Numbered from the stretch's first letter, positions 1-49,572 are shown. The stretch: DNA of 64,000 nucleotides from Patescibacteria group bacterium (GCA_040384725.1 JAZKIS010000004.1:1256-65255); one strand, 5' to 3'. The notes: generated by a model not told the origin, from the letters alone. Translations and numbers: made by a program.

Positions 1-81
1 CCAGGGGCGGGACTCGAACCCGCACGACATTGCTGTCTGAGGTGTTTAAGACCTCTATGTCTACCATTCCATCACCCTGGC
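1..81 (-). tRNA. tRNA-Leu (anticodon UAA), 3' end cut by window edge
   Basis: Reverse complement folds as a class II tRNA: acceptor gccaggg, anticodon stem gaggt/acctc with loop cTTAAac, long variable arm, T-arm gcggg-ttcgagt-cccgc. The last acceptor nucleotide lies beyond position 1. Confidence 0.7.
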
Positions 82-6821: not shown

Positions 6822-6974
6822 ATGTCACAGGATCGTCTCATACTACTGCGCTCTGCTTCCGGGCACGTTCGCCGTACGCGCAAGAACAAGAAGAAGGTAG
6901 AGCGTAAGATCGAGCTCAAGAAGTTCGATCCGAACACCCGCACCCGCGAGATCTACAAGGAAGTTAAGAAATAA
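6822..6974 (+). CDS. rpmG: 50S ribosomal protein L33
   Basis: 50 aa: MSQDRLILLRSASGHVRRTRKNKKKVERKIELKKFDPNTRTREIYKEVKK, matching the L33 pattern (SAGTGHFYTTTKNKR...LELKKFDP...KE.K). The six-frame ORF starts earlier at 6783; TATAGT sits 10 nt upstream of the ATG at 6822. Confidence 0.8.
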   Translation: MSQDRLILLRSASGHVRRTRKNKKKVERKIELKKFDPNTRTREIYKEVKK

Positions 6975-6979
6975 GAGAA

Positions 6980-7010
6980 AGCCGCCCGAAAGGGCGGTTT
7001 CTCGTTTTCG
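6980..7010 (+). terminator. rho-independent terminator after rpmG
   Basis: Hairpin ccgccc-gaaa-gggcgg followed by tttctcgttttcg. Confidence 0.7.
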
Positions 7011-7062: not shown

Positions 7063-7212
7063 AGTACGTTCGCGAGCCTGCCGACCGGGGCCTGCGAACT
7101 TGCGAACGTTCAAGTAATTTATACTAAGTGGTTTTTGCTGTCAATACCCCAAAGGCCCGTTGTGCATAATGCGTGACTGACGATGCCTTGAGGATAATAA
7201 GCGTGCTATATC

Positions 7213-7241
7213 TTGACTTTTCTCGCTAAAATTGCTTATAT
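7213..7241 (+). promoter_or_regulatory. sigma70-type promoter (TTGACT-17-TTATAT)
   Basis: TTGACT at 7213-7218, 17-nt spacer, TTATAT at 7236-7241; lies upstream of the ORF starting at 7280. Confidence 0.55.
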
Positions 7242-7279
7242 CGAAACAGAACAACCCTGTTCTCTATGAGGTAGACATA

Positions 7280-7753
7280 ATGGCTAGAACTGCAGTCGCC
7301 ACCCTCGACAACGCTGTCCCAACTCCGATCGTGGAAACAGGGCAGGCATACGGACTGACCGCACCGGAAACGGAACGGATCGTCGTCCTGATGCGGGATC
7401 ACCAAACGAACCTTCCGGCTATCCGCTCGATGCTCGAGACCGGCTTGTCGATTCTCGAGGTCGAGCAAGTCCTCGACACTCGCACGCGAGTGCAGGCGGA
7501 GCTGGAAGGACAGTCGGTCAGCCTGAAACAGATCATTCGTTTCCAGGAAGACTTTCCGAGCATGCCACTCCAGTCCGATGTGCTGGTCCAGACCCTGCTG
7601 AACATCCATGATCGATTCCAGACCAACTATCTCGATCAGATGCTGAAGCAGCTCATGGTCCTGCATGCACGTCATCCGGATGCGCTGCCTGAAACCCTGG
7701 CCGATATTCTGGCCGGAGAATCGGATCTCGATTTCAATCAAGCTGAAGAGTAG
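7280..7753 (+). CDS. hypothetical protein
   Basis: ORF in an AT-richer region; start taken at MARTAV (TAGACATA directly upstream). No recognisable domain. Confidence 0.5.
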   Translation: MARTAVATLDNAVPTPIVETGQAYGLTAPETERIVVLMRDHQTNLPAIRSMLETGLSILEVEQVLDTRTRVQAELEGQSVSLKQIIRFQEDFPSMPLQSDVLVQTLLNIHDRFQTNYLDQMLKQLMVLHARHPDALPETLADILAGESDLDFNQAEE

Positions 7754-7761
7754 GAGTAAGA

Positions 7762-8586
7762 ATGGCCGATCCAAATCCGTTTGAAGTGCTTGGCCTCGCT
7801 CCTGACGCTTTGCGCGGAAGGAGCGAGGAAAAGATCCGCGCGCTCGTAAAGCTCTTCGGGCGCTCGTTGTCGCAGGTCGAGCATCCTGACGTCGAAGGCG
7901 GGGATATGGCACGCTTCAAAACCGTACAAGCGGCGTTGAGCGAGCTCGAAGACCCGGAGAGGTTCAAGAAGCACAAGGATGCGTACCTTGAGCCGCGAAA
8001 GACGAAGCTCGAAAAGCTCTCCTCTGACCTGCAGTCTGCAACAGCTGTCGCACGGAGGACCAAGAGGCAGCGCGAGGAATACCAGAAGGCGATAGCAGGA
8101 GCCCTATCTCGTCCTCACATACGAGACCTTAGCGGCTTCCAGCTTACGCTTCACGATACCCTCGAGTACGAACGCCAGTACGAACGCCACATGTCGAGAA
8201 CCCAGATGGCCGCACTCTTCTCGAAGCTGACCTTCAAGGCTGACGGTTCTGTCACCCATGAGCGTCAACGAAGAGAGGTGAACGTACTCAGGACTCCTCT
8301 CGGCTGCATTCCGAAGCAGTCGCTTACCGTGCGCGGGGGGATACTCGGCTTGCTGAACAGCTGCCAACCCTCCCTCGACACGGCACGGATCTCAGGTAAG
8401 AGCCGTTCCGGCCCCGTTCCGGGCACGCGCAAAATTCCTTGGGTCTATGCGGAGCCTATCCTGAAAAGACTGACGCCTCAGATAGTTCCTGATTCGTTTC
8501 TCTTCTCTGCGGTACGCGACGACGAAGACATCAAACTTTATTTTGAAGGGTTTCTCTTCAAAATCGATCCCATCAGTCCTTCGTGA
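7762..8586 (+). CDS. J-domain (DnaJ-like) protein
   Basis: N-terminal NPFEVLGLAPDA...LVKLFGRSLSQVEHPDVEGGD carries the J-domain signature and HPD motif. AGGAG Shine-Dalgarno 7 nt upstream. Confidence 0.6.
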   Translation: MADPNPFEVLGLAPDALRGRSEEKIRALVKLFGRSLSQVEHPDVEGGDMARFKTVQAALSELEDPERFKKHKDAYLEPRKTKLEKLSSDLQSATAVARRTKRQREEYQKAIAGALSRPHIRDLSGFQLTLHDTLEYERQYERHMSRTQMAALFSKLTFKADGSVTHERQRREVNVLRTPLGCIPKQSLTVRGGILGLLNSCQPSLDTARISGKSRSGPVPGTRKIPWVYAEPILKRLTPQIVPDSFLFSAVRDDEDIKLYFEGFLFKIDPISPS

Positions 8587-8789
8587 CTGGTGGGGTTTCT
8601 TTTATGCAGATAGTAGCGGGCCCACTGCAAATAGAATGGAACACCATTGAGCAAACTATCCTGCATTGGGAGCATGTATCTCCTGTCTATAACACCATCT
8701 TTAAGAAATGAAGGTCTCCCGATTTGCACAGACGTATGGTTCTCAGGTACTTAGGAGAAATAATTAGCCTCAGGAGTATACTGAGCACT

Positions 8790-9614
8790 ATGAGACAAGG
8801 ATTCCCTAGCATGCCGCTATCAAGTTCATCTGAACCTAAAAAAGGTGCAGAAGGCACAGCAAACCTTGAAGAGAACGAATCCTTGCTATTCTTCGAACGT
8901 CTTGCAAATCCTCGTATCAGGACGCAACTTCTAGACCTTCTTTATAAGGGGGAAGAAATGGCAGCAGGACAGGACTATACAGAGATCCTTGAAGAAGACG
9001 GTGAGAATGTGCAGTTCGTGGATAAGCTATATGTTCCTAAGTCCAGACAACAAGTAGCAGAGGAGCTAGAACAGCGCATCAGAGTGGTGGAAGGCTATAC
9101 GCCCATCGAGTTCTCCGACAAGATGCCTACTGCTGAAAGTATGACAGTCGGGGAATGGAAAATATACGGAAAGCTTCTGACCGTAAAGCAAAAGAGTATC
9201 GCAGAAGCGCATGAGAAGGGACATGTCATACGCCCGTTCGATGAACGATTCCCATTCTTCAACGAATACTTTCAGAGCGGGTTCGATCTGAGTGTATCGG
9301 TCTTTACAGACGAGGAGATTGAAGAGCTGAGAAAGCAGGGAGACAATGGTCCCGAAATACCCACCGAACACATCATAGAAGGCGGGATGCTGTATCTCTT
9401 TTCAGCTATGGAGATTGCCGAGCGCATGGCCCAGCTCAAGAACTATTTTGGCATGAAAGGAGACGAGCAATTAACCGCTGAGCAGTTGGCTCATGCTAGA
9501 GCACACTACGTAGAAGATACCGGCCTCGACAACAATATGACCTCGTTCTTCAAGGCTATTACACCTCAAACAGAAAAGAGATTTCTAGAACTGATTAATA
9601 CGTCGGGGATATAG
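8790..9614 (+). CDS. hypothetical protein
   Basis: 275 aa acidic protein; start chosen at MRQGFPS (TATACT 8 nt upstream). No recognised domain. Confidence 0.5.
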   Translation: MRQGFPSMPLSSSSEPKKGAEGTANLEENESLLFFERLANPRIRTQLLDLLYKGEEMAAGQDYTEILEEDGENVQFVDKLYVPKSRQQVAEELEQRIRVVEGYTPIEFSDKMPTAESMTVGEWKIYGKLLTVKQKSIAEAHEKGHVIRPFDERFPFFNEYFQSGFDLSVSVFTDEEIEELRKQGDNGPEIPTEHIIEGGMLYLFSAMEIAERMAQLKNYFGMKGDEQLTAEQLAHARAHYVEDTGLDNNMTSFFKAITPQTEKRFLELINTSGI

Positions 9615-9627
9615 AAATGAAGCAAAT

Positions 9628-9654
9628 TTGACATACAATACTATATTGTAGAAT
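9628..9654 (+). promoter_or_regulatory. sigma70-type promoter (TTGACA-15-TAGAAT, with TG extension)
   Basis: TTGACA at 9628, TAGAAT at 9649, in an AT-rich intergenic stretch upstream of ORF 9688. Confidence 0.5.
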
Positions 9655-9687
9655 AATACATTCAGAACTTTCAATGGAGATACTTCT

Positions 9688-9972
9688 ATGGCCCGTGGCC
9701 CGCAACAGCACAACCGTCGGAACGAGTGGTTGCATTTCTTCGCAGGATCGCCTCAGCGACTCGCGTGGACGGCAGTGGGGCTGTTCGTGGTCTTTGCCAT
9801 GTTCTTCCCGATCTCAGCTTCAATCGTCCTTAACAATGTCCTGACGGCATTCGTTAACTCCTTCGGACCGTCTGCCGGACCCCTGCTCGCGATCGCTATC
9901 TCGGTCTGGGCCATCTGGTACGTCATGATTCGGCCGTTCAGGGCGAAGAAGAAAAAGAAGTCCGATCACTGA
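9688..9972 (+). CDS. small integral membrane protein
   Basis: 94 aa with two hydrophobic helices and a KKKKK C-terminal tail. Confidence 0.5.
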   Translation: MARGPQQHNRRNEWLHFFAGSPQRLAWTAVGLFVVFAMFFPISASIVLNNVLTAFVNSFGPSAGPLLAIAISVWAIWYVMIRPFRAKKKKKSDH

Positions 9973-9990
9973 TTCTCGCTGCTCGTTCGC

Positions 9991-10022
9991 AAGCCCCGCA
10001 CACTGATGCGGGGCTTTTGAAT
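9991..10022 (+). terminator. rho-independent terminator
   Basis: aagccccgca cactga tgcggggctt followed by ttga. Confidence 0.6.
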
Positions 10023-10173
10023 ATGGAACGCTCAAATTGTTTCGGATTTCCTGACGAATCAGTAGATACTGAATCCCAGTTGGCGGGCTCTGACGGAGGA
10101 TTTTAGAACTATCGATTGGGCAGGAGAATATCCGTTTTCTGAGACTGTGTTACATGAGCTTGAGAAGTTGTTT

Positions 10174-10221
10174 GCATAAAAGAAAGCCGCCCGGAGGAGC
10201 GGCGAAGGTACTCCTCCGGGC
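10174..10221 (-). terminator. terminator for minus-strand gene 10237-11217 (palindromic, possibly bidirectional)
   Basis: 11-bp stem gcccggaggag / ctcctccgggc; the minus strand reads the hairpin followed by ctttcttttat. Confidence 0.65.
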
Positions 10222-10236
10222 TCATCCGAGCGGTTT

Positions 10237-11217
10237 TTAGATTACGGATACGTTTTTGTCGGAGGTGAACTTTTCTTTGCCACCTTCTTTCCACCCTGCG
10301 ATGGCCGACAGCGTGAGTTCGCGGAGTTGCGGCAAGGTGCCGCCACAGCCGAGAACGTACATGCTCTTCGATTCGGGTCGAAGTTGAAAGCTGACCCAGC
10401 AGACATTGTTTTGGAGCATCACCCGGTCATAGCCACACATCTCAGCGGCCATCACACGCGTAGGTCCGAATTGTCCGGACGCACCGCGATACTCACCTGC
10501 GTCAAGAATGTCCTTCATTCCCGCGAAATAGACCTCGCGCTGGAAAAAGTTGCAAAGCTCACCGAGGTGGCCGCTCAGGACGTTGATGTCGTAGTTCCGC
10601 TCGAGGGCGGCAGTTATCAGTGTGTGACTGTCCAGGTAGAGGTTGTCGAACAAGTTCGCCTCTTCCTGGAGCTTTTTAAAGCCTTGGCTTGGTTCGCTGT
10701 ACACGATAATTCGCATCTCGCGGCTCTGCAGTGCTCCGAAGGGCTGCATTGAGTCGCGAGTAGGTTCATGCCACGTTTCGACAGTCACCCATGCGAGGTA
10801 CTTGGTCTTGTCGAAGTGGGGCTGAGAAAGCATCTCGCCGTTTTGGACGCCCCACAACACTGCATAGGCATAGGGTGGTTTGCTGCTTCGTTCCTCATCA
10901 CGACCTTTCGGCCAGTCGAGACGTTTCAGCACCACACCTGCCTTATCGAGGGCGAAGAGATATTCACCCCGCTTGCCCGCCAGGCCTTTGTGTCGGCCTT
11001 TTGTGGCGAGCATGCAGGCATTATCGATGAGACCCAGATTGTCCGCCTTGCGGTAGAGCAGGTCGCCGTCCGCTTTCTCGAAAGTGATGACGAGGTCGTC
11101 CACCTTCTTCAAGTTCTGATTCCCTTGAGCAATAGGCTCGAAGGGTAAGTCCAAAATATGGTAAAGGAAGGGATATCGGGCAAGCAGCTCAGTGTTCTTT
11201 CGTGCGTTGACACGCAT
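10237..11217 (-). CDS. hypothetical protein (possible metallophosphoesterase-like, unresolved)
   Basis: 326 aa; AGGAG Shine-Dalgarno 7 nt upstream of the ATG; no confident domain call. Confidence 0.5.
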   Translation of the reverse strand: MRVNARKNTELLARYPFLYHILDLPFEPIAQGNQNLKKVDDLVITFEKADGDLLYRKADNLGLIDNACMLATKGRHKGLAGKRGEYLFALDKAGVVLKRLDWPKGRDEERSSKPPYAYAVLWGVQNGEMLSQPHFDKTKYLAWVTVETWHEPTRDSMQPFGALQSREMRIIVYSEPSQGFKKLQEEANLFDNLYLDSHTLITAALERNYDINVLSGHLGELCNFFQREVYFAGMKDILDAGEYRGASGQFGPTRVMAAEMCGYDRVMLQNNVCWVSFQLRPESKSMYVLGCGGTLPQLRELTLSAIAGWKEGGKEKFTSDKNVSVI

Positions 11218-11319
11218 TGGTTGCTCCTACGTTCCGTAGTGAAAAGAACTGGCGTTCCGCCAGCACTGGACGAATGTCCGGAATCAAAATACAACGTTAT
11301 CTAACAAACGTCAATGATG

Positions 11320-11390
11320 CGGGCCCACTAGGAATCGAACCTAGGACGTCGGTTTTGGAGACCGAAGTTATACCATTTAACTATGGACCC
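11320..11390 (-). tRNA. tRNA-Trp (anticodon CCA)
   Basis: Reverse complement gggtcca-ta-gtta-aatggta-taac-t-tcggt-cTCCAaa-accga-cgtc-ctagg-ttcgatt-cctag-tgggccc-g is a 71-nt cloverleaf. Confidence 0.85.
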
Positions 11391-11468
11391 GGTATTGCTC
11401 ACGATACCAGATACACGGGTAGGGGAAAAGAAGCGGGGATTAGAGCGCGCACGGGATACAATCACTCT

Positions 11469-12455
11469 ATGAAAAGGCTCTGGGCCCCGCTGCTCCTTCT
11501 GCTCGTATTTTGCGTGCCACTGGTTGCGAGCGCGCAATCGAACCTCCCGCTTTTTGATCCTGACTGGCAGCTCGTGCCCGATGCGCACAAGATAGATCCA
11601 GTGAACTGTCCTGAAGGATATCCGCTTGGATTCGGGGGTGTTTTGCAGCTCGTGCAGAACGGCATGAACGCGGCGATATCGTTCGGCGTTATTATCTTCG
11701 TTCTCGTTATCGCGGGGGCCGGCATCCTGTGGATACTTACGCCGACGAACCCCGAGAATCACTCGCAGGCAAAGAAGATCCTTACGAACGCCGTTATCGG
11801 CCTCCTGATCATCCTGTCGGCGTGGCTCATCGTTGACTTCGTCATGAAGCTTCTCTATAACCCGAACGCGAATAACATGGGTCCCTGGAATCAAATTCTG
11901 ACGGGAGGAGATCTCTGCATTAAGCCGATGGAGAATCTCCAGCCTCTCTTCAGCGGCAGCATCCTGGCTGTCCCGGGCGCGTCCAGCGCATCATATGATC
12001 CGCGGTATACGACGAGTGGTTCATGCTCGCCTGCGAGCGTCCAGCAGGCAGGGCAGAGCGTAACCATAACCGTGAAGGAGGCGCGATTCCTGGCGTGCAT
12101 CGCACGGCCTGAAAGCCGGTGCGGTGGCGACCTCACGAACTACAACTGGGGCAGGGGCTCGAGCGCGTACGGACCGTTCATGATCCTGCTCGATGGAAAT
12201 GCGCGGTATTTCGAGAACGAGGCATGCAGGGTGGCAGCGAACGTTTCAGGACGCCTCAACTGCCAGGACGGATTCAGGAACGGAAACCCCATCCCAGGAA
12301 GTGACATCGCGCGACGCTGCATGCAGGCTGCGTCGAACCTCGCATGCAGCACTGCCGCCGCTACCGCGCTCGTGCGACAGTCCGGAGCAACGCCATGGAC
12401 CGGGAACAACGACAGCAAGCCGGCGCATATGCGTTGCGCGCTGGAGCTCAGGTAG
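11469..12455 (+). CDS. VirB2/TrbC-like pilin module fused to lytic transglycosylase-like domain
   Basis: Signal peptide plus two TM helices (AISFGVIIFVLVIAGAGILWIL; AVIGLLIILSAWLIVDFVM); C-terminal IARPESRCGG...SAYGPFMIL resembles the SLT ES...GLMQI motifs. Paralog of ORF 13062-13979. Confidence 0.6.
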   Translation: MKRLWAPLLLLLVFCVPLVASAQSNLPLFDPDWQLVPDAHKIDPVNCPEGYPLGFGGVLQLVQNGMNAAISFGVIIFVLVIAGAGILWILTPTNPENHSQAKKILTNAVIGLLIILSAWLIVDFVMKLLYNPNANNMGPWNQILTGGDLCIKPMENLQPLFSGSILAVPGASSASYDPRYTTSGSCSPASVQQAGQSVTITVKEARFLACIARPESRCGGDLTNYNWGRGSSAYGPFMILLDGNARYFENEACRVAANVSGRLNCQDGFRNGNPIPGSDIARRCMQAASNLACSTAAATALVRQSGATPWTGNNDSKPAHMRCALELR

Positions 12456-12477
12456 AGGCTATACTTATCTTGAACCC

Positions 12478-13059
12478 ATGAAAAATTCCACTCTTTGGAT
12501 CGCCGGCTCGATACTTCTTGTCCTCACCGTGGCGGTTATCATCGGCGCGTACCTCTTCCTTTCGCAAGTTCGCGAGCCAGCGCCTTCAGAGCAAGCGCCC
12601 GGCGGAATCTATTTCCCTACGAGTGGCGGTGTCTCAGGAGGAAGTTCGGAGACGGGTACCCGCTCGCTCGCGCTCGCTACGGGAAAGCAGATCGTGGTGA
12701 AGGATTTCCTTGCGAACGGCATAACGTATAAGGACCTGGCGAACGCGGGTTCCTATTTCCTTGCAGGAAAGCTCGAGTACTGTCTCGAGGACGGCACCTG
12801 TCCCGACACGAACACACCGAACTTCAGCATCCTGTATCTCGAAGCGGACCAGAGCTTCTCGGTGAGTCTGAACGAGGAGCCGTTAAAGGACTCGCGCGTG
12901 GCAGCTGAACGCTATCTCATGGCGGCGCTCGGCATAGATGAAAAGGATATGTGCGATCTCATGTACGCACTCGGGACGACGGTGTCCGTGAACGAGGCAT
13001 ATGGATCGATCACTAACCTCGGCTTCAGCTTCTGCGAAGGTGCGATACCGCTCCCGTAA
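12478..13059 (+). CDS. membrane-anchored hypothetical protein
   Basis: 193 aa with an N-terminal TM anchor and an extracytoplasmic Cys-containing domain; lies between the two paralogs. Confidence 0.5.
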   Translation: MKNSTLWIAGSILLVLTVAVIIGAYLFLSQVREPAPSEQAPGGIYFPTSGGVSGGSSETGTRSLALATGKQIVVKDFLANGITYKDLANAGSYFLAGKLEYCLEDGTCPDTNTPNFSILYLEADQSFSVSLNEEPLKDSRVAAERYLMAALGIDEKDMCDLMYALGTTVSVNEAYGSITNLGFSFCEGAIPLP

Positions 13060-13061
13060 CC

Positions 13062-13979
13062 ATGAGAGCGATATTCCCATTCGTCCTCGCGCTCATCCTG
13101 CTCCTGCCACTCTCTGCAGATGCGCAGTTCGGCCCCATCGTGCCCGAGGTGTGCCGCACCTGTGCGTGCGGGTTCGGCGGCGTACTCGCTATCGTGCAGA
13201 ACGTGGTGAATTTCATGATCAGCATCTCGATCATATTCGCGACCATCATCATGGTGTGGGCCGGCGGCTTATACATACTCTCTGCAGCCAATCCGGAGAG
13301 CCGCAGCACCGCGAACAAGATGCTTCTCAACGCGGTTATCGGTATTCTGATCGTGCTCTCCGCATGGCTCATCGTCGACTTCGTCATGAAGACGCTCTAC
13401 AACAACGGCAGCGAGTTCGGTCCCTGGAATTCGATCCTGCTCGGCGGTGTGGGGGATAGCTGCGTCGTTGCGAAGCCAACTTCACCCCTCTTTAGCGGCA
13501 ACATTATCGCTGTTCCTGGACAGGGCAGCGGAGCGGGCGTCGGGGGCGACGTTGTTACGAGCGCTTCCGCGAGCCATCAGGCAGGCGCTGCAAAGCTTTC
13601 AGCAGCAGGCATAAGCATTTCTTCGTCAGGCAACTGTGCGGACAAGAGGAACGCGCGATGTACGTCGCTTGACGGTATGAAAGAGAATACGGTTGACCAG
13701 GCCATTGCAGTGAAGCAAGCCTGCGGATGCAGTGTCGTGGTTACCGGCGGGACAGAGACCGGGCACGCAGGTGGACCTACGAGCCATAGCGCTGGCTACA
13801 AGATAGACCTCGGGGTAAACACACAGCTAGACGCGTATATCCGAAGCCTCACCCCGTCCGGCGCACGAGGCTCTGATTCTCGATATAAGGATCGCTGCGG
13901 AAACGAGTATGTACGTGAGACGAGCCCCAATCACTGGGACATAACCGTAAGCGCTGGCGTCTGCAGCCCGCCTAAGTAG
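13062..13979 (+). CDS. VirB2/TrbC-like pilin module fused to peptidase M15-like domain
   Basis: N-terminal ~170 aa paralogous to ORF 11469 (GFGGVL.IVQN...NAVIG.LI.LSAWLIVDFVMK.LYN...GPWN.IL.GG...LFSG.I.AVPG). C-terminal GGPTSHSAGYKIDL fits the M15 GG...SxHxxGxAxD motif, and NHWDI fits the EPWH-like motif. Confidence 0.55.
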   Translation: MRAIFPFVLALILLLPLSADAQFGPIVPEVCRTCACGFGGVLAIVQNVVNFMISISIIFATIIMVWAGGLYILSAANPESRSTANKMLLNAVIGILIVLSAWLIVDFVMKTLYNNGSEFGPWNSILLGGVGDSCVVAKPTSPLFSGNIIAVPGQGSGAGVGGDVVTSASASHQAGAAKLSAAGISISSSGNCADKRNARCTSLDGMKENTVDQAIAVKQACGCSVVVTGGTETGHAGGPTSHSAGYKIDLGVNTQLDAYIRSLTPSGARGSDSRYKDRCGNEYVRETSPNHWDITVSAGVCSPPK

Positions 13980-14808
13980 CAAGCTTCCTCAGCCACGCCT
14001 TCTGGTGCCTGGCGTAGTGCCACACCTTCGTGGAAAGGGAATCGAGGAGCGTGTCTTCGCTCCGTTCGTCACGAAGGAACTCGCCAACGATTCTGTACTC
14101 GAGACCGAGCTCGTTCAAGCGCGCATCTCCGACGTATTTGCGTACGCGACGTACTTCTTCGATGAGGCCGTTCTCGAGTGCCGTTGCCAGCCGCGTTCTG
14201 ATGCGGGATCGCAGCTCGTCGCGCTCTGGATTAAGGATGATCCACTCGACCGGGACCCTCGCTTCCGTTACATCGCGCTCCGGCACGTTGCCATGCGTCT
14301 CGATTATCTCAAGTGCACGCACAAGCCGGCGCTTGTTCATCGGATCAATACGTTCTGCCCGGCGCGGATCGCGAGTACGAATCTCTTCCATGAGGGATTC
14401 GGCGCTGCGCTTCTCGAGGTCTTCTCGCAGTATCGCGTTCGGCTCCGTTTCCTTAGGCAAGCCATAGAGAAGCGCGTCGAAGTAGAAATGGGTGCCACCT
14501 GCAAGGATAGGGCGCTTGCCGCGGCCGCGTATGTCTCCAATAAGACGCTCGGCGTCCTTCACGAAGTCACCCGCGCTATAGGTTTCCTTCGGGTCTCGTA
14601 TGTCGATGAGGTGGTGCGGGATACCGTCCATCTCTTCAAGAGAAGTCTTTTCCGTACCGATATCGAGCATTCGGTATACCTGCCTCGAATCAACCGAGAT
14701 AACCTCGCCATCGAGTTCCTTCGCAAGTGCCACGGCACGCGCAGACTTGCCCGAGGCGGTCGGGCCGGCGATGCATAGTATGGGGGAAGGGTCGTCCACG
14801 TGGCTCAC
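13972..14808 (-). CDS. miaA: tRNA dimethylallyltransferase
   Basis: ILCIAGPTASGKSARAVALA...ISVDSRQVYR.LDIGTEK is the typical MiaA P-loop and substrate motif. Confidence 0.88.
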   Translation of the reverse strand: MSHVDDPSPILCIAGPTASGKSARAVALAKELDGEVISVDSRQVYRMLDIGTEKTSLEEMDGIPHHLIDIRDPKETYSAGDFVKDAERLIGDIRGRGKRPILAGGTHFYFDALLYGLPKETEPNAILREDLEKRSAESLMEEIRTRDPRRAERIDPMNKRRLVRALEIIETHGNVPERDVTEARVPVEWIILNPERDELRSRIRTRLATALENGLIEEVRRVRKYVGDARLNELGLEYRIVGEFLRDERSEDTLLDSLSTKVWHYARHQKAWLRKLAT

Positions 14809-42520: not shown

Positions 42521-42673
42521 CTCCATGAACACCTCATCTAACGCTCATCACACATCTATTAGAGTGGCCTGATGCCTAGCTCTATGCGAATATTGGAAGA
42601 CCGCCGCCCCACCTCCTGTCGCATAGCCCTAAAAGCCCTTGCTAAGAGTGGTCCCGGCGGTACGTCATACTTT

Positions 42674-43177
42674 ATGGACCAGGAAGAAACGAAAGCCTAT
42701 TTCCTCCAGATATACGATACCTATGCGGACGATATCTACCGTTTCTGCTACCTCAAGGTTAGCAACCGGGAGCTCGCCCAGGATCTGTCTCAGGAGGTCT
42801 TCACCCGCTTCTGGCAGGCCCTGCGGGAGGGTACCGTCATGCGAAGCGAGCGAGCGCTCCTCTATACCATGGCGCGGAACCTTGTTATCGACTGGTACCG
42901 GAAGAAGAAGGAATCCTCGCTCGACGTACTGACCGAGCAAGGCCTCGAGTTCGGCGGAGACGGAGCAGACGATGTGACGCGCGATGCTGAGATGGGCGAG
43001 GCCCTACGGATGGTGAGCAAGCTTGATGTGGCATCAAGAGACGTGCTCATCCTCAGATTCGTCGACGGCCTCTCGCCGAAGGAGATAGCGCTTCTCTCGG
43101 GAGAGTCAGCGAATGCCGTCTCTGTCCGCCTGAACCGCGCCATGAAGAAGATGCGTACCCTTATGCATACCGATTGA
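42674..43177 (+). CDS. ECF-type sigma-70 family RNA polymerase sigma factor
   Basis: Region 2 (DDIYRFCYLKVSNRELAQDLSQEVFTRFW) and region 4 HTH (LSPKEIALLSGESANAVSVRLNRAMKKM). Start at MDQEET; the six-frame ORF starts earlier. Confidence 0.8.
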   Translation: MDQEETKAYFLQIYDTYADDIYRFCYLKVSNRELAQDLSQEVFTRFWQALREGTVMRSERALLYTMARNLVIDWYRKKKESSLDVLTEQGLEFGGDGADDVTRDAEMGEALRMVSKLDVASRDVLILRFVDGLSPKEIALLSGESANAVSVRLNRAMKKMRTLMHTD

Positions 43178-43191
43178 TCTAGAGAAGAACC

Positions 43192-44166
43192 ATGACCACA
43201 CGAAATCCTATTACCATACTCAAGTCGCTGAGGAACCTAACTCTCGGAAGCGACGTCAAGAAGCGCATGCGCGCTGATATTTCTGCATACGCTGATCTCC
43301 ACTCGCTCACGGATCTCGTGAAGCGCTTGCCGGTGCGTTCCCCGTTCTCATTCGCTTCGTTCATGGTACCTGCGCGCAGCCTCTACGCCGGCGCGCTTAC
43401 GCTCGTACTCATGGTTGCGGGAGGCACGCAGGCAAGCCTCGCTTCTGAAGGTTCGGTCCCAGGAGACATCCTGTACCCGCTCAAGGTAGCGGTTAGCGAG
43501 CCGCTCGCATTCGTGTTCACGCCGTCGACCGAAGGAAGGGCGAGCCTCGCTGCAGAATTCGCATCCCGCAGGGTAGACGAGGCGGCAGCGCTCTCGTCTG
43601 TAGGCAAGCTCGACGAGCAGACGGCTCAGGACTTGGCTACCCGATTTGATGCGCATGTCGACGTGCTGGCGAAAGAGACGGACACGCTTGAGGCGAAGGG
43701 CGAGATCGCTACGTCGCTTGCGGTGCGTACCGACCTCGAGCAGAAGCTCTCAGCACGCGTTGAGGAATTCGCTGTCGATGCGGTTGCCGAAGAGAACGTG
43801 CTCGTCGCAACCTCGATGGCCGTAGAGGAATCCACCGCAGACCGCTTCACCACGCGCGTCTTCGAGAAATCAAAGACGCTCGCAACGACTCGCGAACGGC
43901 TCGAGACAGCACTCGCGCTCGATGTCGAGGCAGAGCTCAAGGAGGGAGTGAACCTTGCTACTATCCGGTCAGGGGAGGCTGTGCAGGGAGAGAGCGCGTC
44001 CGCAGGAATCTTCTTTGCTAAGGTCGGGTCAGGTGAGGTCGACAATCTCGCGGCAACGACTACTGCCACGACGACCGCTTCAACGACCGACGAGAAGCTT
44101 CTTGAGAATAGCGAGCCTAGCGACTCAGCGGCATCACGTTTCTTCGCGCCATTCTTGAAGCGATAG
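43192..44166 (+). CDS. putative anti-sigma factor / membrane protein downstream of ECF sigma
   Basis: One TM helix after an ~80-aa cytoplasmic N-terminus; extracytoplasmic helical region; assignment rests on gene position. Confidence 0.45.
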   Translation: MTTRNPITILKSLRNLTLGSDVKKRMRADISAYADLHSLTDLVKRLPVRSPFSFASFMVPARSLYAGALTLVLMVAGGTQASLASEGSVPGDILYPLKVAVSEPLAFVFTPSTEGRASLAAEFASRRVDEAAALSSVGKLDEQTAQDLATRFDAHVDVLAKETDTLEAKGEIATSLAVRTDLEQKLSARVEEFAVDAVAEENVLVATSMAVEESTADRFTTRVFEKSKTLATTRERLETALALDVEAELKEGVNLATIRSGEAVQGESASAGIFFAKVGSGEVDNLAATTTATTTASTTDEKLLENSEPSDSAASRFFAPFLKR

Positions 44167-44205: not shown

Positions 44206-44628
44206 ATGGGAACACTATTCAAACTCATAGCCTGCCTCATCGTTGTCGGGGGTATATGGGTGTGGGCGAACGGCAAGTCCGTTACGGATGAGGTCGAAGC
44301 GCGTACCGAGCCGGTACAGCTCTCTGCGTCGGCGATTCTCGCTACCGAGACAGAAGGAGCTTTCGACAAGGAAGGCACCATCGTCTTCGATGTCACGGAG
44401 GGCCAGAACGGCACTCCCTATATCCTCTATACGGACTATAACGACCAAGGAAAGCCGTCGGTGCGCACGAAGCGGCTCGTGTTCGCCAACCGCGATGCCT
44501 GTGCCGAAGTGAACCTTCCGTGCGCGACGAACCAGCCCGGTATACCGGTCTATGCCGATCAGAACGTGCGCGTCGTAGGGACCGTCAAGGACGAGCTCGT
44601 GCAGGTCAGCGAAGTCTATGTCATATAG
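44206..44628 (+). CDS. secreted hypothetical protein
   Basis: Signal anchor; 140 aa. Confidence 0.5.
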   Translation: MGTLFKLIACLIVVGGIWVWANGKSVTDEVEARTEPVQLSASAILATETEGAFDKEGTIVFDVTEGQNGTPYILYTDYNDQGKPSVRTKRLVFANRDACAEVNLPCATNQPGIPVYADQNVRVVGTVKDELVQVSEVYVI

Positions 44629-44652
44629 GCCGGTTCGCCGTATACTCTTCCT

Positions 44653-45330
44653 ATGAATCGCCTCACCTTCGTTCTTTTTCTCATAGGCATAATCGCCATA
44701 GGCGGCGGTACCGCTTGGTATCTGGTTGATACCCGGAACGAAGCGTTCGGTCCTCCTACGGTCGCGACAAGCACGCCGCAGATCGAGGAAGGCGTTGCTA
44801 TCTATTCGAACGGCCCGTACGGATTCACGATCTTCTATCCAGAGGATGCGGAGGTTTCGTATACCTTTGACGCTGACTATCATCTCGGTACAAGCTGGCG
44901 CGCGAACGCGCTTCCGGACGCTGACGGAACCCCTATCGTCTCTATCGCTCCATATAGAACCGAGAGCACGGATTCGTACCCACGGTACTTCAACGCGATG
45001 GTGCGTATCGGCGCATCGATAGATGCGACTGAGCTTGCGCGCTGCGAAGTCGCTGCCGCTGAGCAAGGAGAAACGGCACTGCCAGACATGGTTATTGGCT
45101 CAACGACCTGGAAAGTGTTCGCGTTTGAGAGTGCCGGTATGATGCAGTACGCGAAGGGCGTATCCTACCGGACCCTGCATGAAGGACGCTGCATCGCGCT
45201 TGAGAAGGTGCGCACCGGATCGAGCTATCGGGAGGACGCGCCGAGCGAGAAGGACATCCCTGAAGAGATGCTTTCCGGAGAATACGAAGCGCTCGCGAGT
45301 ATCATCGAGAGCTTCTCGTTTGCGCGGTAA
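44653..45330 (+). CDS. secreted hypothetical protein
   Basis: Signal anchor; 225 aa; TATACT 8 nt upstream. Confidence 0.5.
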   Translation: MNRLTFVLFLIGIIAIGGGTAWYLVDTRNEAFGPPTVATSTPQIEEGVAIYSNGPYGFTIFYPEDAEVSYTFDADYHLGTSWRANALPDADGTPIVSIAPYRTESTDSYPRYFNAMVRIGASIDATELARCEVAAAEQGETALPDMVIGSTTWKVFAFESAGMMQYAKGVSYRTLHEGRCIALEKVRTGSSYREDAPSEKDIPEEMLSGEYEALASIIESFSFAR

Positions 45331-46836: not shown

Positions 46837-49572
46837 ATGGAGGGACCGATACTACCCATAACCTCGCCCGAGGACGAGCTCGCGTATCTTCGCGAGCAGA
46901 TCGTGCGCAAAGAAGCCGAGCTTGCGACCTACAAGCGCGACATGCCGCGCGAGGACATCGCGCATGAGCGTATCCTGCATCACCGCATGAGCGGCCCAGA
47001 AACGCTGCTCGCGTCAGAATTCAGGATGTCTGAGCGTGACGCGGCAAAGCATGCAGACATGCTCGCGCTGAATCTCGATCCGGAACAGAACGACGAGACG
47101 ATCGCAGAGCTCCGGAATGTCATGGAGGAGAAGGGTATCCACAACGTGTTCACGATCCTCGGAAAGCTGAACAATGCGCACCTGGAAGATGATTTCCATC
47201 GCTTCCTCGTGCAGTACCTCGTTGTTGGCATGCAACCCAAAGGACTCGCGGAGAACCAGCCGGAATGGAAGGCGCTCCGGATGACCCTGTACGAGATCGC
47301 GCTCCCTGAGGCCAATACTGAAGAGTCGCGCGGCAAATCCCTCAAGGAACTCATCTCGTCCATGGAGCAGTTCTATTCCGGCTTGCTCGCGGTTGAGCAC
47401 GCGGGACGCGGCGAGCCTGCCTACATGACGCTCGAGCTCGCGGTCCCGGTGGATGCGCCGCATCTGATGTTCTACGCCTCGGTACCAAACACGCGCCGGG
47501 ACCTCTTCGAGAACCAGCTCCTTGCTATCTTCCCGAATGCGCAGGTGAGCGTACAGTCGAACGACTACAACGTGTTCGTTGAGGACGGCGAATCGCTCGC
47601 GTCCGTCGCTGAGTTCAAGGATAAGGCGATGCTCCCCTTGAAGGACTATCAGGACTTCGATTACGATCCCCTTAACTCCCTTCTGAACGCGTTCGCGAAA
47701 GTAGCGCCCGAGAACGAAGGAGCAGCCCTCCAGATCGTGTTTAAGCCGGAAGGAAGTCATTACGTCGATCACTACCGACGCATCATTCACGCGCTTCGCC
47801 AAGGAGAGCACCGTTCGCGAGCATTCAACCTGCCCGAGACGTTCGCCGGGGATCTCGCGCGCGAGGCCGCAGGGCTCTTCTTTTCGAGCAAGAAGCAGTC
47901 GCAGACCGAACCGGTCGATGAGAAAGCGGTCGAGATGGTCGAGAAGAAGATCGGCGCGCCGATCGTCTCGACCAATATCAGGCTCACGGTTTCGTCACAG
48001 GCTCACGATCGCGCCCATCAGATACTCACCGAGCTCGAATCCGCGTTCAATCAGTTCGATAACACCACCGGAAACCGTATCAACTTCCGGAGACCGAACA
48101 AGGGCTCCTTGAAGCAGCTTCTCCGGGATTTCTCGTTCCGTTTGTATCGCGCTTCGACCAATCTCCCGCTCTCGCTTCGCGAGCTCACGACCCTCTACCA
48201 TTTTCCGCCGCAGGGCATAGAGTCCTCGCCGCAGCTTAAGCAATCGCGCGCAGCGAGCGCAGCCGCACCGATCGGCCTTCCGCGAGAGGGTCTCATGCTC
48301 GGTGTGAACGAGTTCCGCGGCACGAAGACCGAGGTCCGTCTCTCTGATGCGGATCGCTTGCGCCATCTCTATGTCATCGGACAGACGGGCGCGGGTAAGT
48401 CCGGTCTCTTGCGGACCCTGATCGACCAAGACATCAAGGAAGGGAAAGGCGTCTGCTTCATCGATCCTCACGGGAACGATATCCTCGACGTGCTGGCTAC
48501 CGTCCCCCCTGAGCGCTACGAGGACGTCATCTATTTCGATCCTGCCAATATCGATCGCCCGTTCGGACTCAACATGCTCGAGTACGACCCGAAGCGCCCG
48601 GAGCAGAAGACGTTCATCGTGAATGAGATGCTCGCCATCTTCCGACAGCTGTATGGCGACGTGCCGGAGTCCATGGGCCCGATGTTCGAGCAGTACTTTA
48701 GGAACGCGACGCAGCTCGTCATGGAAGACCCGGCATCGGGCTCAACCATGATGGATATCGGCCGGGTCATGTCGAACGCTGACTTCAGGAACCTGAAGCT
48801 GGCACGGAGCAATAACCCTATCGTGAATCAGTTTTGGTCTGAGATCGCGACGAAGGCTGAAGGCGAGGCGAGCCTCCAGAGCATCGTGCCGTACATCACG
48901 AACAAGTTCGATGAGTTCACCACGAGCGATTTCATGCGGCCGATCATCGGGCAGCAGGAAAGCTCCTTCAATTTCAGGGAAGTCATCGACAATAAGAAGA
49001 TCCTCCTGGTCAATCTCTCGAAAGGACGCCTCGGAGAGCGCAATGCGAATCTCCTCGGTCTTATCATCGTGGGCAAGCTCTTCATGGCGGCGCTCTCGCG
49101 AGCGGACGATCCGCGCGGGAACTTCCCGCCGTTCTACCTCTATATCGACGAGTTCCAGAACATCACCACCTCTTCGATCCCTGGCATTCTCTCCGAAGCC
49201 CGCAAATACAAGCTTTCCCTCACTATCGCGCACCAGTACCTCGCGCAGATCGACGAGAAGATCAGGGATGCGGTCTTCGGCAACGTCGGGTCTATGGCGG
49301 TCTTCCGTGTCGGACAGGAGGACGGAGAGTTCTTCGGGAAGCTCTTCGAGCCTACCTTCAAGGCGAGCGACTTTACGAACATCGAGAACCGGAATGCCTA
49401 TGTCCGCATGCTCGCGAACGGCGTGCCCCAGAAGCCGTTCAGCATGAAGACCTTGAATCTGTCTGAAGGAACCCTCGCTCAGGTGGATGACCTTCGTGAA
49501 TTGTCGTATCTCACGTACGGCAGGGACCGTGCTACTGTTGAAGCATCTATTAGAGCGCGCTATCTTTCTTAA
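46837..49572 (+). CDS. VirD4/TraG/TraD-family (type IV coupling protein-like) P-loop ATPase with ~450-aa N-terminal extension
   Basis: Walker A GQTGAGKSG; Walker B FYLYIDEFQNI; the TIAHQYLAQI...FGNVGSMAVFRVG block is typical of T4CP. No N-terminal TM helices. Confidence 0.6.
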   Translation: MEGPILPITSPEDELAYLREQIVRKEAELATYKRDMPREDIAHERILHHRMSGPETLLASEFRMSERDAAKHADMLALNLDPEQNDETIAELRNVMEEKGIHNVFTILGKLNNAHLEDDFHRFLVQYLVVGMQPKGLAENQPEWKALRMTLYEIALPEANTEESRGKSLKELISSMEQFYSGLLAVEHAGRGEPAYMTLELAVPVDAPHLMFYASVPNTRRDLFENQLLAIFPNAQVSVQSNDYNVFVEDGESLASVAEFKDKAMLPLKDYQDFDYDPLNSLLNAFAKVAPENEGAALQIVFKPEGSHYVDHYRRIIHALRQGEHRSRAFNLPETFAGDLAREAAGLFFSSKKQSQTEPVDEKAVEMVEKKIGAPIVSTNIRLTVSSQAHDRAHQILTELESAFNQFDNTTGNRINFRRPNKGSLKQLLRDFSFRLYRASTNLPLSLRELTTLYHFPPQGIESSPQLKQSRAASAAAPIGLPREGLMLGVNEFRGTKTEVRLSDADRLRHLYVIGQTGAGKSGLLRTLIDQDIKEGKGVCFIDPHGNDILDVLATVPPERYEDVIYFDPANIDRPFGLNMLEYDPKRPEQKTFIVNEMLAIFRQLYGDVPESMGPMFEQYFRNATQLVMEDPASGSTMMDIGRVMSNADFRNLKLARSNNPIVNQFWSEIATKAEGEASLQSIVPYITNKFDEFTTSDFMRPIIGQQESSFNFREVIDNKKILLVNLSKGRLGERNANLLGLIIVGKLFMAALSRADDPRGNFPPFYLYIDEFQNITTSSIPGILSEARKYKLSLTIAHQYLAQIDEKIRDAVFGNVGSMAVFRVGQEDGEFFGKLFEPTFKASDFTNIENRNAYVRMLANGVPQKPFSMKTLNLSEGTLAQVDDLRELSYLTYGRDRATVEASIRARYLS

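Follow-up and report, generated by a model that had tools for sequence, protein, structure and literature searches.

Pilin-like modules joined to predicted cell-wall hydrolases in a conserved three-gene cassette of Patescibacteria, with a possible link to type IV secretion

Which machinery is served, and whose wall is cut, when two pilin-like proteins of one genome each carry a predicted peptidoglycan hydrolase? The question is raised by three consecutive genes at positions 11469–13979 (plus strand) of a 64,000-nucleotide stretch of DNA from a Patescibacteria group bacterium (JAZKIS010000004.1, positions 1256–65255; hereafter the window). The system for type IV secretion (T4SS) belongs to the small set of machineries that Patescibacteria, also called the Candidate Phyla Radiation (CPR), have been shown to require for epibiotic life, and its pilin-like genes have been deemed its most puzzling ones. 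T4SSs of monoderm bacteria normally lack a pilus. We favor, at somewhat better than even chances, the reading that this three-gene operon is the wall-cutting module of a CPR T4SS, tethered by VirB2-like hairpins. Such a module would offer a concrete model for how CPR cells breach a wall, either their own or that of the host. The cassette combines known kinds of component, VirB2-like pilins and T4SS wall hydrolases, and does not constitute a new category.

The first and third genes, designated W1 (328 aa, with an ATG start and a TAG stop) and W2 (305 aa), were found exactly where a first-pass annotation of the window, made from the DNA alone, had placed them, and the small membrane-anchored protein that it described between the two is the second gene, designated MID (193 aa). 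The intergenic gaps W1/MID and MID/W2 are 22 and 2 nt, respectively, and the 3′ end of W2 overlaps a convergent miaA-like gene (13972–14808). The adjoining tRNA-Trp was identified upstream of W1 as tRNA-Trp(CCA) at 11319–11390 on the minus strand. In the public gene call, W1 has 393 residues (1192–2373 of contig L001, corresponding to about 11274–12455 of the window), and its start overlaps the tRNA-Trp gene. The more plausible start is the ATG at 11469, after which the signal peptide begins directly. A promoter and terminator scan of the cassette locus performed no better than shuffled sequences. The features of the cassette are as follows:

11469–12455, plus strand: W1, VirB2/T4SS_pilin-like module followed by a lysozyme-like domain (open reading frame [ORF], PF18895 match, orthologues).
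11469–11534, plus strand: W1 signal peptide, residues 1–22, ending VASA/Q (hydrophobic window 4–22, mean Kyte–Doolittle value 2.37), with a putative cleavage site of the A-x-A pattern.
11682–11846, plus strand: W1 transmembrane hairpin, helices at residues ~72–90 and 108–126 with a short loop containing NPE..KK (hydropathy peaks 2.82 and 2.55; T4SS_pilin match).
11943–11978, plus strand: W1 junction motif PLFSGSILAVPG, residues 159–170, conserved between W1 and W2 at the end of the shared module and followed by a Gly/Ser linker.
12018–12452, plus strand: W1 lysozyme-like domain, residues ~184–328, with the candidate catalytic Glu215 at 12111–12113.
12478–13059, plus strand: MID, a bitopic protein with one N-terminal helix (residues 6–24) and an external domain with 2 conserved Cys (ORF).
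13062–13979, plus strand: W2, VirB2/T4SS_pilin-like module followed by a LAS-type (M15-like) peptidase domain (ORF, PF18895 match).
13062–13124, plus strand: W2 signal peptide, residues 1–21, ending SADA/Q (hydrophobic window 3–21).
13203–13376, plus strand: W2 transmembrane hairpin, helices at residues ~48–66 and 87–105 (hydropathy peaks 2.32 and 2.61; T4SS_pilin match).
13485–13520, plus strand: W2 junction motif PLFSGNIIAVPG, residues 142–153, the domain-swap or recombination boundary (comparisons with loci L006 and L003).
13569–13976, plus strand: W2 LAS (Hedgehog/DD-peptidase-like) domain, with the candidate metal-binding or catalytic residues His235, His242, Asp249, Glu286, and His291.

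Comparison of W1 and W2 by BLASTP revealed 58% identity over 120 aa (W1 residues 54–169, W2 residues 37–152; E = 1e-37) and no similarity beyond these limits. Kyte–Doolittle hydropathy windows, from which all signal-peptide and helix calls were made, showed in each protein an N-terminus resembling a signal peptide, followed by 2 strongly hydrophobic 19-residue segments with a short basic loop between them (W1 residues 72–90 and 108–126; W2 residues 48–66 and 87–105), as in PF18895 pilins. The shared N-terminal module described in the first-pass annotation is thus confirmed, and the motifs that it quoted were all located in W1 and W2. The positive-inside loop and the precedent of VirB2 suggest a topology with both termini outside. 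Both proteins match PF18895 (T4SS_pilin) above its gathering threshold of 26.6 bits, W1 with 38.1 bits (residues 69–125) and W2 with 33.1 bits (residues 44–108), and 10 orthologues scored 32.7–47 bits. The cut-off of PF04956 (TrbC/VirB2; 27.9 bits) was not reached by W1 (11.5 bits, E = 0.37), and a Pfam search gave no match of this family to W2; among the orthologous modules, that of L005 exceeded the cut-off (30.5 bits) and others scored 14.7–26.1 bits. The NCBIfam model NF045849, which describes a pilin-like protein for conjugal transfer in integrative and conjugative elements (ICEs) of mycoplasmas, also gave a weak match below threshold. The VirB2/TrbC likeness proposed from topology therefore holds through PF18895 for W1 and W2 themselves and through PF04956 at the level of the orthologues.

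VirB2/TrbC and the PF18895 pilins of Southlakia and Nanosynbacter resemble the module in having a signal peptide, 2 helices, and a short basic loop. The described CPR pilins comprise ~130 residues, whereas W1 and W2 add a conserved stalk of ~45 residues (GPWN...C...PLFSGxIxAVPG) and a catalytic domain of ~140–160 residues. In addition, 5 proteins of ~580–1150 aa (P0079, P0098, P0190, P0191, and P0196) contain 7–11 separate pilin-module matches each, that is to say, they are tandem “poly-pilin” proteins.

The C-terminal domain of W1 contains the motifs ARPES (residues 209–216) and SSAYGPFMILL (residues 231–241). A word-indexed search returned only 2 close homologues; as a family, this tail type accounts for 46 of the 145 tails among the best relatives of the N-terminal module (described below). 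In an alignment of 30 members, the Glu corresponding to W1 Glu215 is invariant, the next Ser is near-invariant, and a G-x-F-Q-I hairpin motif is present. The profile of the family matched C-type lysozymes in the PDB over the catalytic Glu region (E = 4.5e-6), and 14 and 7 of the 30 members matched PF18896 (SLT_3, best 9e-10) and PF01464 (SLT), respectively. W1 itself has the arrangement of a lysozyme-like fold, with the candidate catalytic Glu (E-S) closing a helix ahead of the G-x-F/M-Q-I hairpin. In C-type lysozymes (GH22, PF00062), the Glu is followed by an Asp as second catalytic residue (Asp52/53); W1 has Ala at this position (S-S-A-Y-G versus S-T-D-Y-G), and the family shows no conservation there. 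Because this Asp is absent, single-Glu chemistry resembling that of GH23 or lytic transglycosylases is the better guess, and we predict that the W1 tail, acting through one catalytic Glu, probably belongs to the lytic transglycosylases or the g-type muramidases. The SLT/VirB1-like assignment of the first-pass annotation is supported at the level of fold and motif, W1 itself having no Pfam match.

The tail of W2 contains TGGTETGH (residues 228–235), SHSAGYKID (residues 241–249), and ETSPNHWD (residues 286–293), which agree with the LAS pattern H-x(3-6)-D and (E-x-x-)H. A search with residues 153–305 yielded 47 homologues, several of which are joined to T4SS_pilin. Many others are small Streptomyces proteins of ~160 aa with no pilin module, and the domain also occurs in Nocardioides; the homologues P0008–P0044 include proteins encoded on Streptomyces megaplasmids. 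Some homologues have a PG_binding_1 domain, and in one (P0009) the W2-type domain lies behind a WXG100 domain of type VII secretion. TGGTExGH, S-H-x2-G-x3-D, and E...H-W-D are invariant in the family. When the family was aligned by hhalign with genuine VanY tails of sister proteins, the 2 LAS motifs fell in register (P = 0.003). Like VanX/VanY (MEROPS M15), MepA (M74), and the Hedgehog N-domain, W2 has an H-x2-G-x3-D and an E-x(2-4)-H motif, both in the VanY register; it differs from these known LAS peptidases in the additional invariant TGGTExGH, in conserved Cys pairs, and in matching no sequence model. Foldseek returned nothing significant for the W2 C-terminal domain. The tail is likely LAS-fold and M15-like, and W2 is not accepted as a member of any curated M15 family. 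The M15-like domain of the first-pass annotation thus stands on the alignment of its motifs with VanY but finds no match among sequence models or by Foldseek. Judged from its conserved motifs, the W2-type domain appears to be an uncurated LAS family of its own, shared with Actinobacteria.

MID has a single hydrophobic helix near its N-terminus and no match in Pfam, NCBIfam, or the PDB; as a possible fold, one of the VirB8-like (NTF2) type was considered. Its 71 homologues are all from CPR bacteria or unnamed sources, which suggests an uncurated, CPR-only family. The middle protein was recognized in the first-pass annotation, but its membership of a conserved unit was missed: a MID homologue lies between the 2 fusion genes in about 45 of 60 surveyed loci (described below).

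To what kinds of protein is the pilin-like module attached elsewhere? A complete HMMER scan of 1.84 billion cluster representatives with the N-terminal module yielded 4800 relatives when E-values up to 1e-3 were accepted and 372 when the limit was 1e-10. Among the 150 best relatives, 145 have a tail of at least 60 residues after the module; most are 300–450 aa long, with the module at residues ~1–170. The 145 tails include 46 lysozyme-like, 16 W2-type LAS, 9 VanY (P0051, 52.9 bits; P0057, 43 bits), and 9 CHAP-like tails, plus an SLT group (P0084, 58 bits); the CHAP/NlpC matches were weak. A further group of 57 is mixed, with LAS-like motifs (SCHYGG..AVDF..HLHV and CH..GTCVD..HFSVY) and Cys–His peptidase motifs. 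This mixed cluster (“tail A”) is a single-linkage blend of at least 3 types recognizable only by their motifs, and hhalign detected no relationship between it and the tails of the VanY, LAS, CHAP, and lysozyme types. The survey of C-terminal domains that the first-pass annotation had suggested as a check thus returned mostly wall hydrolases where the tails could be classified. Because the classifiable tails are peptidoglycan hydrolases, the module is not a generic signal anchor; we therefore reject this candidate, and the generic anchor on unrelated proteins that the first-pass annotation had held against its own proposal was not seen.

The cassette as a whole was surveyed in 60 loci (one genome per GTDB species; ORF calling and custom hidden Markov models), of which 59 are labeled Patescibacteria, Paceibacterota, Parcubacteria, Saccharibacteria, or uncultured bacterium and one (L032) is labeled a Bacillota metagenome-assembled genome. 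The arrangement of module plus lysozyme-like domain, MID homologue, module plus peptidase, and convergent miaA was found in about 43–45 of the 60 loci. Gene 1 has an orthologue in 45 loci, with a lysozyme-like tail in every case, and a convergent miaA follows gene 3 in at least 40. The cassette is single-copy. The first-pass annotation had called the architecture unusual, which it is relative to model T4SSs; within Patescibacteria, by contrast, it is common and conserved (145 of 150 relatives; ~43–45 of 60 loci).

Such a cassette could also consist of housekeeping autolysins, which would remodel the core wall or separate daughter cells with an anchor derived from a pilin and would have no present tie to a T4SS. 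Consistent with this, it is single-copy, vertically inherited, and miaA-syntenic in about 45 species-level genomes with no VirB4 detected within 10 kb; the window contains the housekeeping neighbors ClpB, MiaA, peroxiredoxin, ParB, RelA/SpoT, and TopA, and of the window ORFs scanned, none outside the cassette was an obvious wall hydrolase. Three observations argue in the opposite direction: (i) the same gene pair lies inside VirB4 operons in 3 other CPR loci; (ii) the T4SS_pilin signature of the anchor is still complete and scores above threshold, with no decay to a generic helix; and (iii) the peptidase class is frequently replaced among close relatives (described below), which is unexpected for enzymes acting on a cell's own, slowly changing wall. 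We regard autolysins as a distinctly unlikely explanation.

The VirB4 operons just mentioned belong to 3 more distant CPR loci (L002, L063, and L064), in which the pilin-lysozyme gene, followed by MID, is found at the 3′ end of a T4SS operon as its last genes. In L063 and L064, both close to dnaA, the order is TrbL_3/VirB6–x–PrgI–TraC-like–VirB4–x–x–~900-aa protein–pilin-lysozyme–MID; L002 starts just upstream of PrgI and has the same order from there on. MID is followed by a pilin-LAS gene in L002 and by a short pilin gene in L064. After MID or the short pilin, L063 (10551–11687) and L064 (11059–12204) also encode a conserved, membrane-anchored protein of ~380 aa that has a repetitive, possibly beta-propeller-like sequence and no Pfam match; the T4SS operon of CPR bacteria may include it as an additional component.

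In their operon position beside VirB4, the relatives in L002, L063, and L064 agree with the T4SS-associated hydrolases VirB1, PrgK (pCF10), and TraG (pIP501), which the cassette resembles in combining a lysozyme-like/SLT cleaver with peptidase activity. The systems differ in three respects: (i) PrgK and TraG carry the glycosidase and the peptidase on one polypeptide, whereas these activities would here be split between W1 and W2; (ii) PrgK and TraG are likewise anchored in the membrane, but by an N-terminal helix (PMC12102498), whereas the cassette anchor is a pilin-type hairpin; and (iii) the peptidase of PrgK and TraG is always CHAP, whereas that of the cassette is LAS, VanY, or another type.

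We propose that both enzymes of the cassette would be exported through their Sec signal peptides and that the VirB2/T4SS_pilin-type hairpin (N-out, C-out) would hold each of them at the outer face of the membrane, the disulfide-rich catalytic domains thereby sitting in the wall. There, W1 would cleave glycan strands, and W2, as a putative zinc peptidase of the LAS fold, would cut peptide stems or cross-links. MID, which always accompanies gene 1, may be their partner, either as a scaffold or as a regulator or inhibitor. The pilin-handling platform of the T4SS (VirB4/VirB6/VirB3) would recognize the hairpin, and through this docking the wall would be cut only where secretion takes place, by analogy with VirB1 in diderms and PrgK/TraG in Gram-positive bacteria. 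The wall cut in this way would be the cell's own or that of the host.

Several results weigh against a wall-cutting T4SS module. VirB4 was not detected within 10 kb of the miaA-linked cassette in the window and about 45 relatives (phmmer with a single distant VirB4 query), and tblastn with the T4SS proteins of L002 found no VirB4, PrgI, TraC-like, or short pilin gene in the 64-kb window. Like VirB2-like CPR pilins, relatives of the module lie in operons with VirB4 in other, related CPR genomes; the W1 and W2 modules are not next to VirB4 in this genome. Since no VirB4 was detected beside the cassette, the T4SS link of this lineage is one of homology only. At the domain level, the W1 C-terminal domain had no match in Pfam at E ≤ 1 or in NCBIfam, and in W1 and its 2 closest homologues Met replaces the near-invariant Gln of the GxFQI motif (GPFMIL versus GPFQIL; window 12159–12191). 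W2 and its 31-member family had no match among Pfam models and PDB sequences, nor did the W2 C-terminal domain match an NCBIfam model, and the fold evidence for W2 is modest. Finally, a 2025 review, in which CPR pilins are a unique feature among monoderm T4SSs, states that a pilus of T4SS_pilin proteins has not been observed in any CPR bacterium (PMC12857230). The T4SS-linked system suggested in the first-pass annotation is thus backed by the synteny of L002, L063, and L064 but not by a VirB4 beside the cassette in the window.

The only other T4SS-related gene seen in the window (46837–49572) encodes a 911-aa VirD4/type IV coupling protein-like ATPase with the Walker A motif GQTGAGKSG (DUF87, 31.5 bits; CD1115-family VirD4-like NCBIfam model, E = 5e-9). 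It is followed by an overlapping gene for an 877-aa protein (to 52120) with a hydrophobic Gly/Ala-rich center and a low-complexity Ala/Pro-rich tail, for which no family match was obtained.

The peptidase domain of gene 3 bears on the question of whose wall is cut. This domain is polymorphic, which the first-pass annotation missed. Six tail classes occur at this position, namely W2-type (13), SCHYGG-type (10), VanY (10; 53.5 bits for the VanY domain of a positional orthologue), CH..GTCVD-type (7), CHAP-like (2), and NlpC-like (1). Among locus pairs whose gene 3 modules are at least 65% identical, 74 have tails of different classes and 18 have tails of the same class. W2 and gene 3 of L006 are 88% identical over residues 1–158 (N-modules 88–90%) and unrelated thereafter, with a sharp junction after PLFSGxIxAVPG. 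The nucleotide sequence ceases to be homologous to that of contig L003, which is syntenic, at 13525, shortly after the codons for PLFSGxIxAVPG; homology begins again at 13973, within miaA. The diversity of gene 3 tails is therefore one of domain replacement at a fixed junction. This exchange amounts to a natural experiment in substrate specificity and may mark host range.

These data can also be read as attack on the host wall, either by a pilus bearing the enzymes as minor or tip subunits or by exported effectors, with the peptidase swapped to match the host peptidoglycan. Besides the swapping itself, such a reading is favored by the constancy of gene 1: its class never changes, and the chemistry of its glycan substrate is the same in all bacteria. 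The WXG100 fusion and the small secreted Streptomyces proteins, some with PG_binding_1, indicate that the W2-type domain serves other secretion systems as a secreted module. In addition, a cultured CPR bacterium requires its T4SS, together with the array of pilins, to grow as an epibiont (PMC10633639). By contrast, the gene after the variable tail is miaA and not a co-varying immunity gene, with the conserved MID upstream, and a globular domain of ~150 residues on every subunit fits VirB2-type helical packing poorly. Because of this clash, incorporation into a pilus could only be sub-stoichiometric. Host attack seems to us unlikely on balance. A specific form of it, a “drilling” VirB2-type pilus whose subunits would carry a glycan cutter and a host-matched, interchangeable peptidase to open the host wall for the T4SS, is slightly less probable still; if it were true, the frequent peptidase swaps would record host switching.

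The conserved N-module, the sharp junction, and the 6 interchangeable C-terminal classes are also reminiscent of polymorphic toxin systems. Unlike these, the cassette has no co-varying downstream immunity gene, its classifiable tails are all wall hydrolases, it is single-copy, and orphan tail cassettes were not seen.

The fixed junction itself permits a further explanation, in which the fusions are pro-pilins: by analogy with TrbC/VirB2 pilins, cleavage at PLFSGxIxAVPG would free a soluble hydrolase outside the cell, and what remains would be a mature short pilin. Paralogues and orthologues share the junction motif, behind which lies a Gly/Ser-rich linker; TrbC/VirB2 of the RP4 and Ti systems are known to be processed at the C-terminus; and no separate short pilin gene was found in the window. 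The motif may, however, be a mere structural stalk, no candidate protease was identified, and L064 encodes a fusion together with a separate short pilin. We consider pro-pilin processing very improbable, and the wall-cutting T4SS module is retained as the preferred reading.

A precedent for the wall-cutting module is the essential T4SS locus of the cultured CPR species Southlakia epibionticum, in which a lysozyme-like/Cys-peptidase protein and a Hedgehog/DD-peptidase protein are encoded beside VirB4, together with 6 separate small pilin genes (PMC10633639). These 2 proteins of strain ML1 (SEML1_0006 and SEML1_0007), both essential for epibiotic growth, have the pair of folds that is predicted for the cassette and are encoded beside VirB4; they are larger (643 and 1113 aa) and show no T4SS_pilin in the Pfam, structural-match, or ECOD columns.

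A survey of 3035 Patescibacteria genomes called “VirB2” by PF18895 and reported that most VirB2-bearing CPR genomes have no detectable VirB1, for which other glycosidases might substitute; pilin-hydrolase fusions are not mentioned in its text or tables (PMC12102498). The VirB1/TrsG/CD419 profiles of that survey evidently miss W1/W2-type proteins as VirB1, and such proteins are listed as VirB2 through PF18895. The reported lack of VirB1 would be explained if the hydrolase were hidden inside these “VirB2” matches. A large conserved subfamily of CPR “pilins” would then be peptidoglycan hydrolase carriers, and many VirB2 matches of the survey would have to be reclassified. Full-text literature searches found no paper describing a pilin-hydrolase fusion; since PF18895 and PF18896 are neighboring Pfam accessions, the architecture is implicitly catalogued. 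A preprint entitled “A Novel Pilus System in CPR” was set aside, as it concerns unrelated Ig-fold donor-strand pilins.

Two other origins of the cassette were considered and rejected. A phage lysis cassette (holin-endolysin or SAR-endolysin-like) is rejected because a tblastn search of 50,697 phage records with W1 gave no match and because the cassette lies on the chromosome and is conserved by vertical descent. We likewise reject an origin from a plasmid or ICE; only the W2 C-terminal domain matches “hypothetical proteins” of Streptomyces plasmids.

Upstream of the cassette, a stretch of ~4.2 kb (7149–11318) has a GC content of about 0.50–0.53, compared with about 0.58–0.60, and the syntenic contig L003, which is 83% identical, lacks it. 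The stretch borders on the 3′ end of the tRNA-Trp gene, an end of which a 21-nt imperfect copy lies at 8616–8636, and contains only orphan ORFs, at 7232–7753, 7762–8586, 8724–9614, 9688–9972, and 10237–11217 (minus strand). These ORFs had no match in Pfam or NCBIfam, and the stretch resembles an integrated element, or two of them, in which no integrase is recognizable. A 27-nt element with a GC-rich hairpin (GCCGCCC-GAAA-GGGCGG) occurs in 2 copies that are 85% identical (6971–6997 and 10176–10202); these look like terminators, one just outside the low-GC island and one within it. Farther downstream, the region 42572–44166 encodes an ECF-type sigma factor (Sigma70_r2/r4) and then a DUF5667 membrane protein, a probable sigma/anti-sigma pair, and several small secreted or anchored orphan proteins are encoded after this pair (44206–45330).

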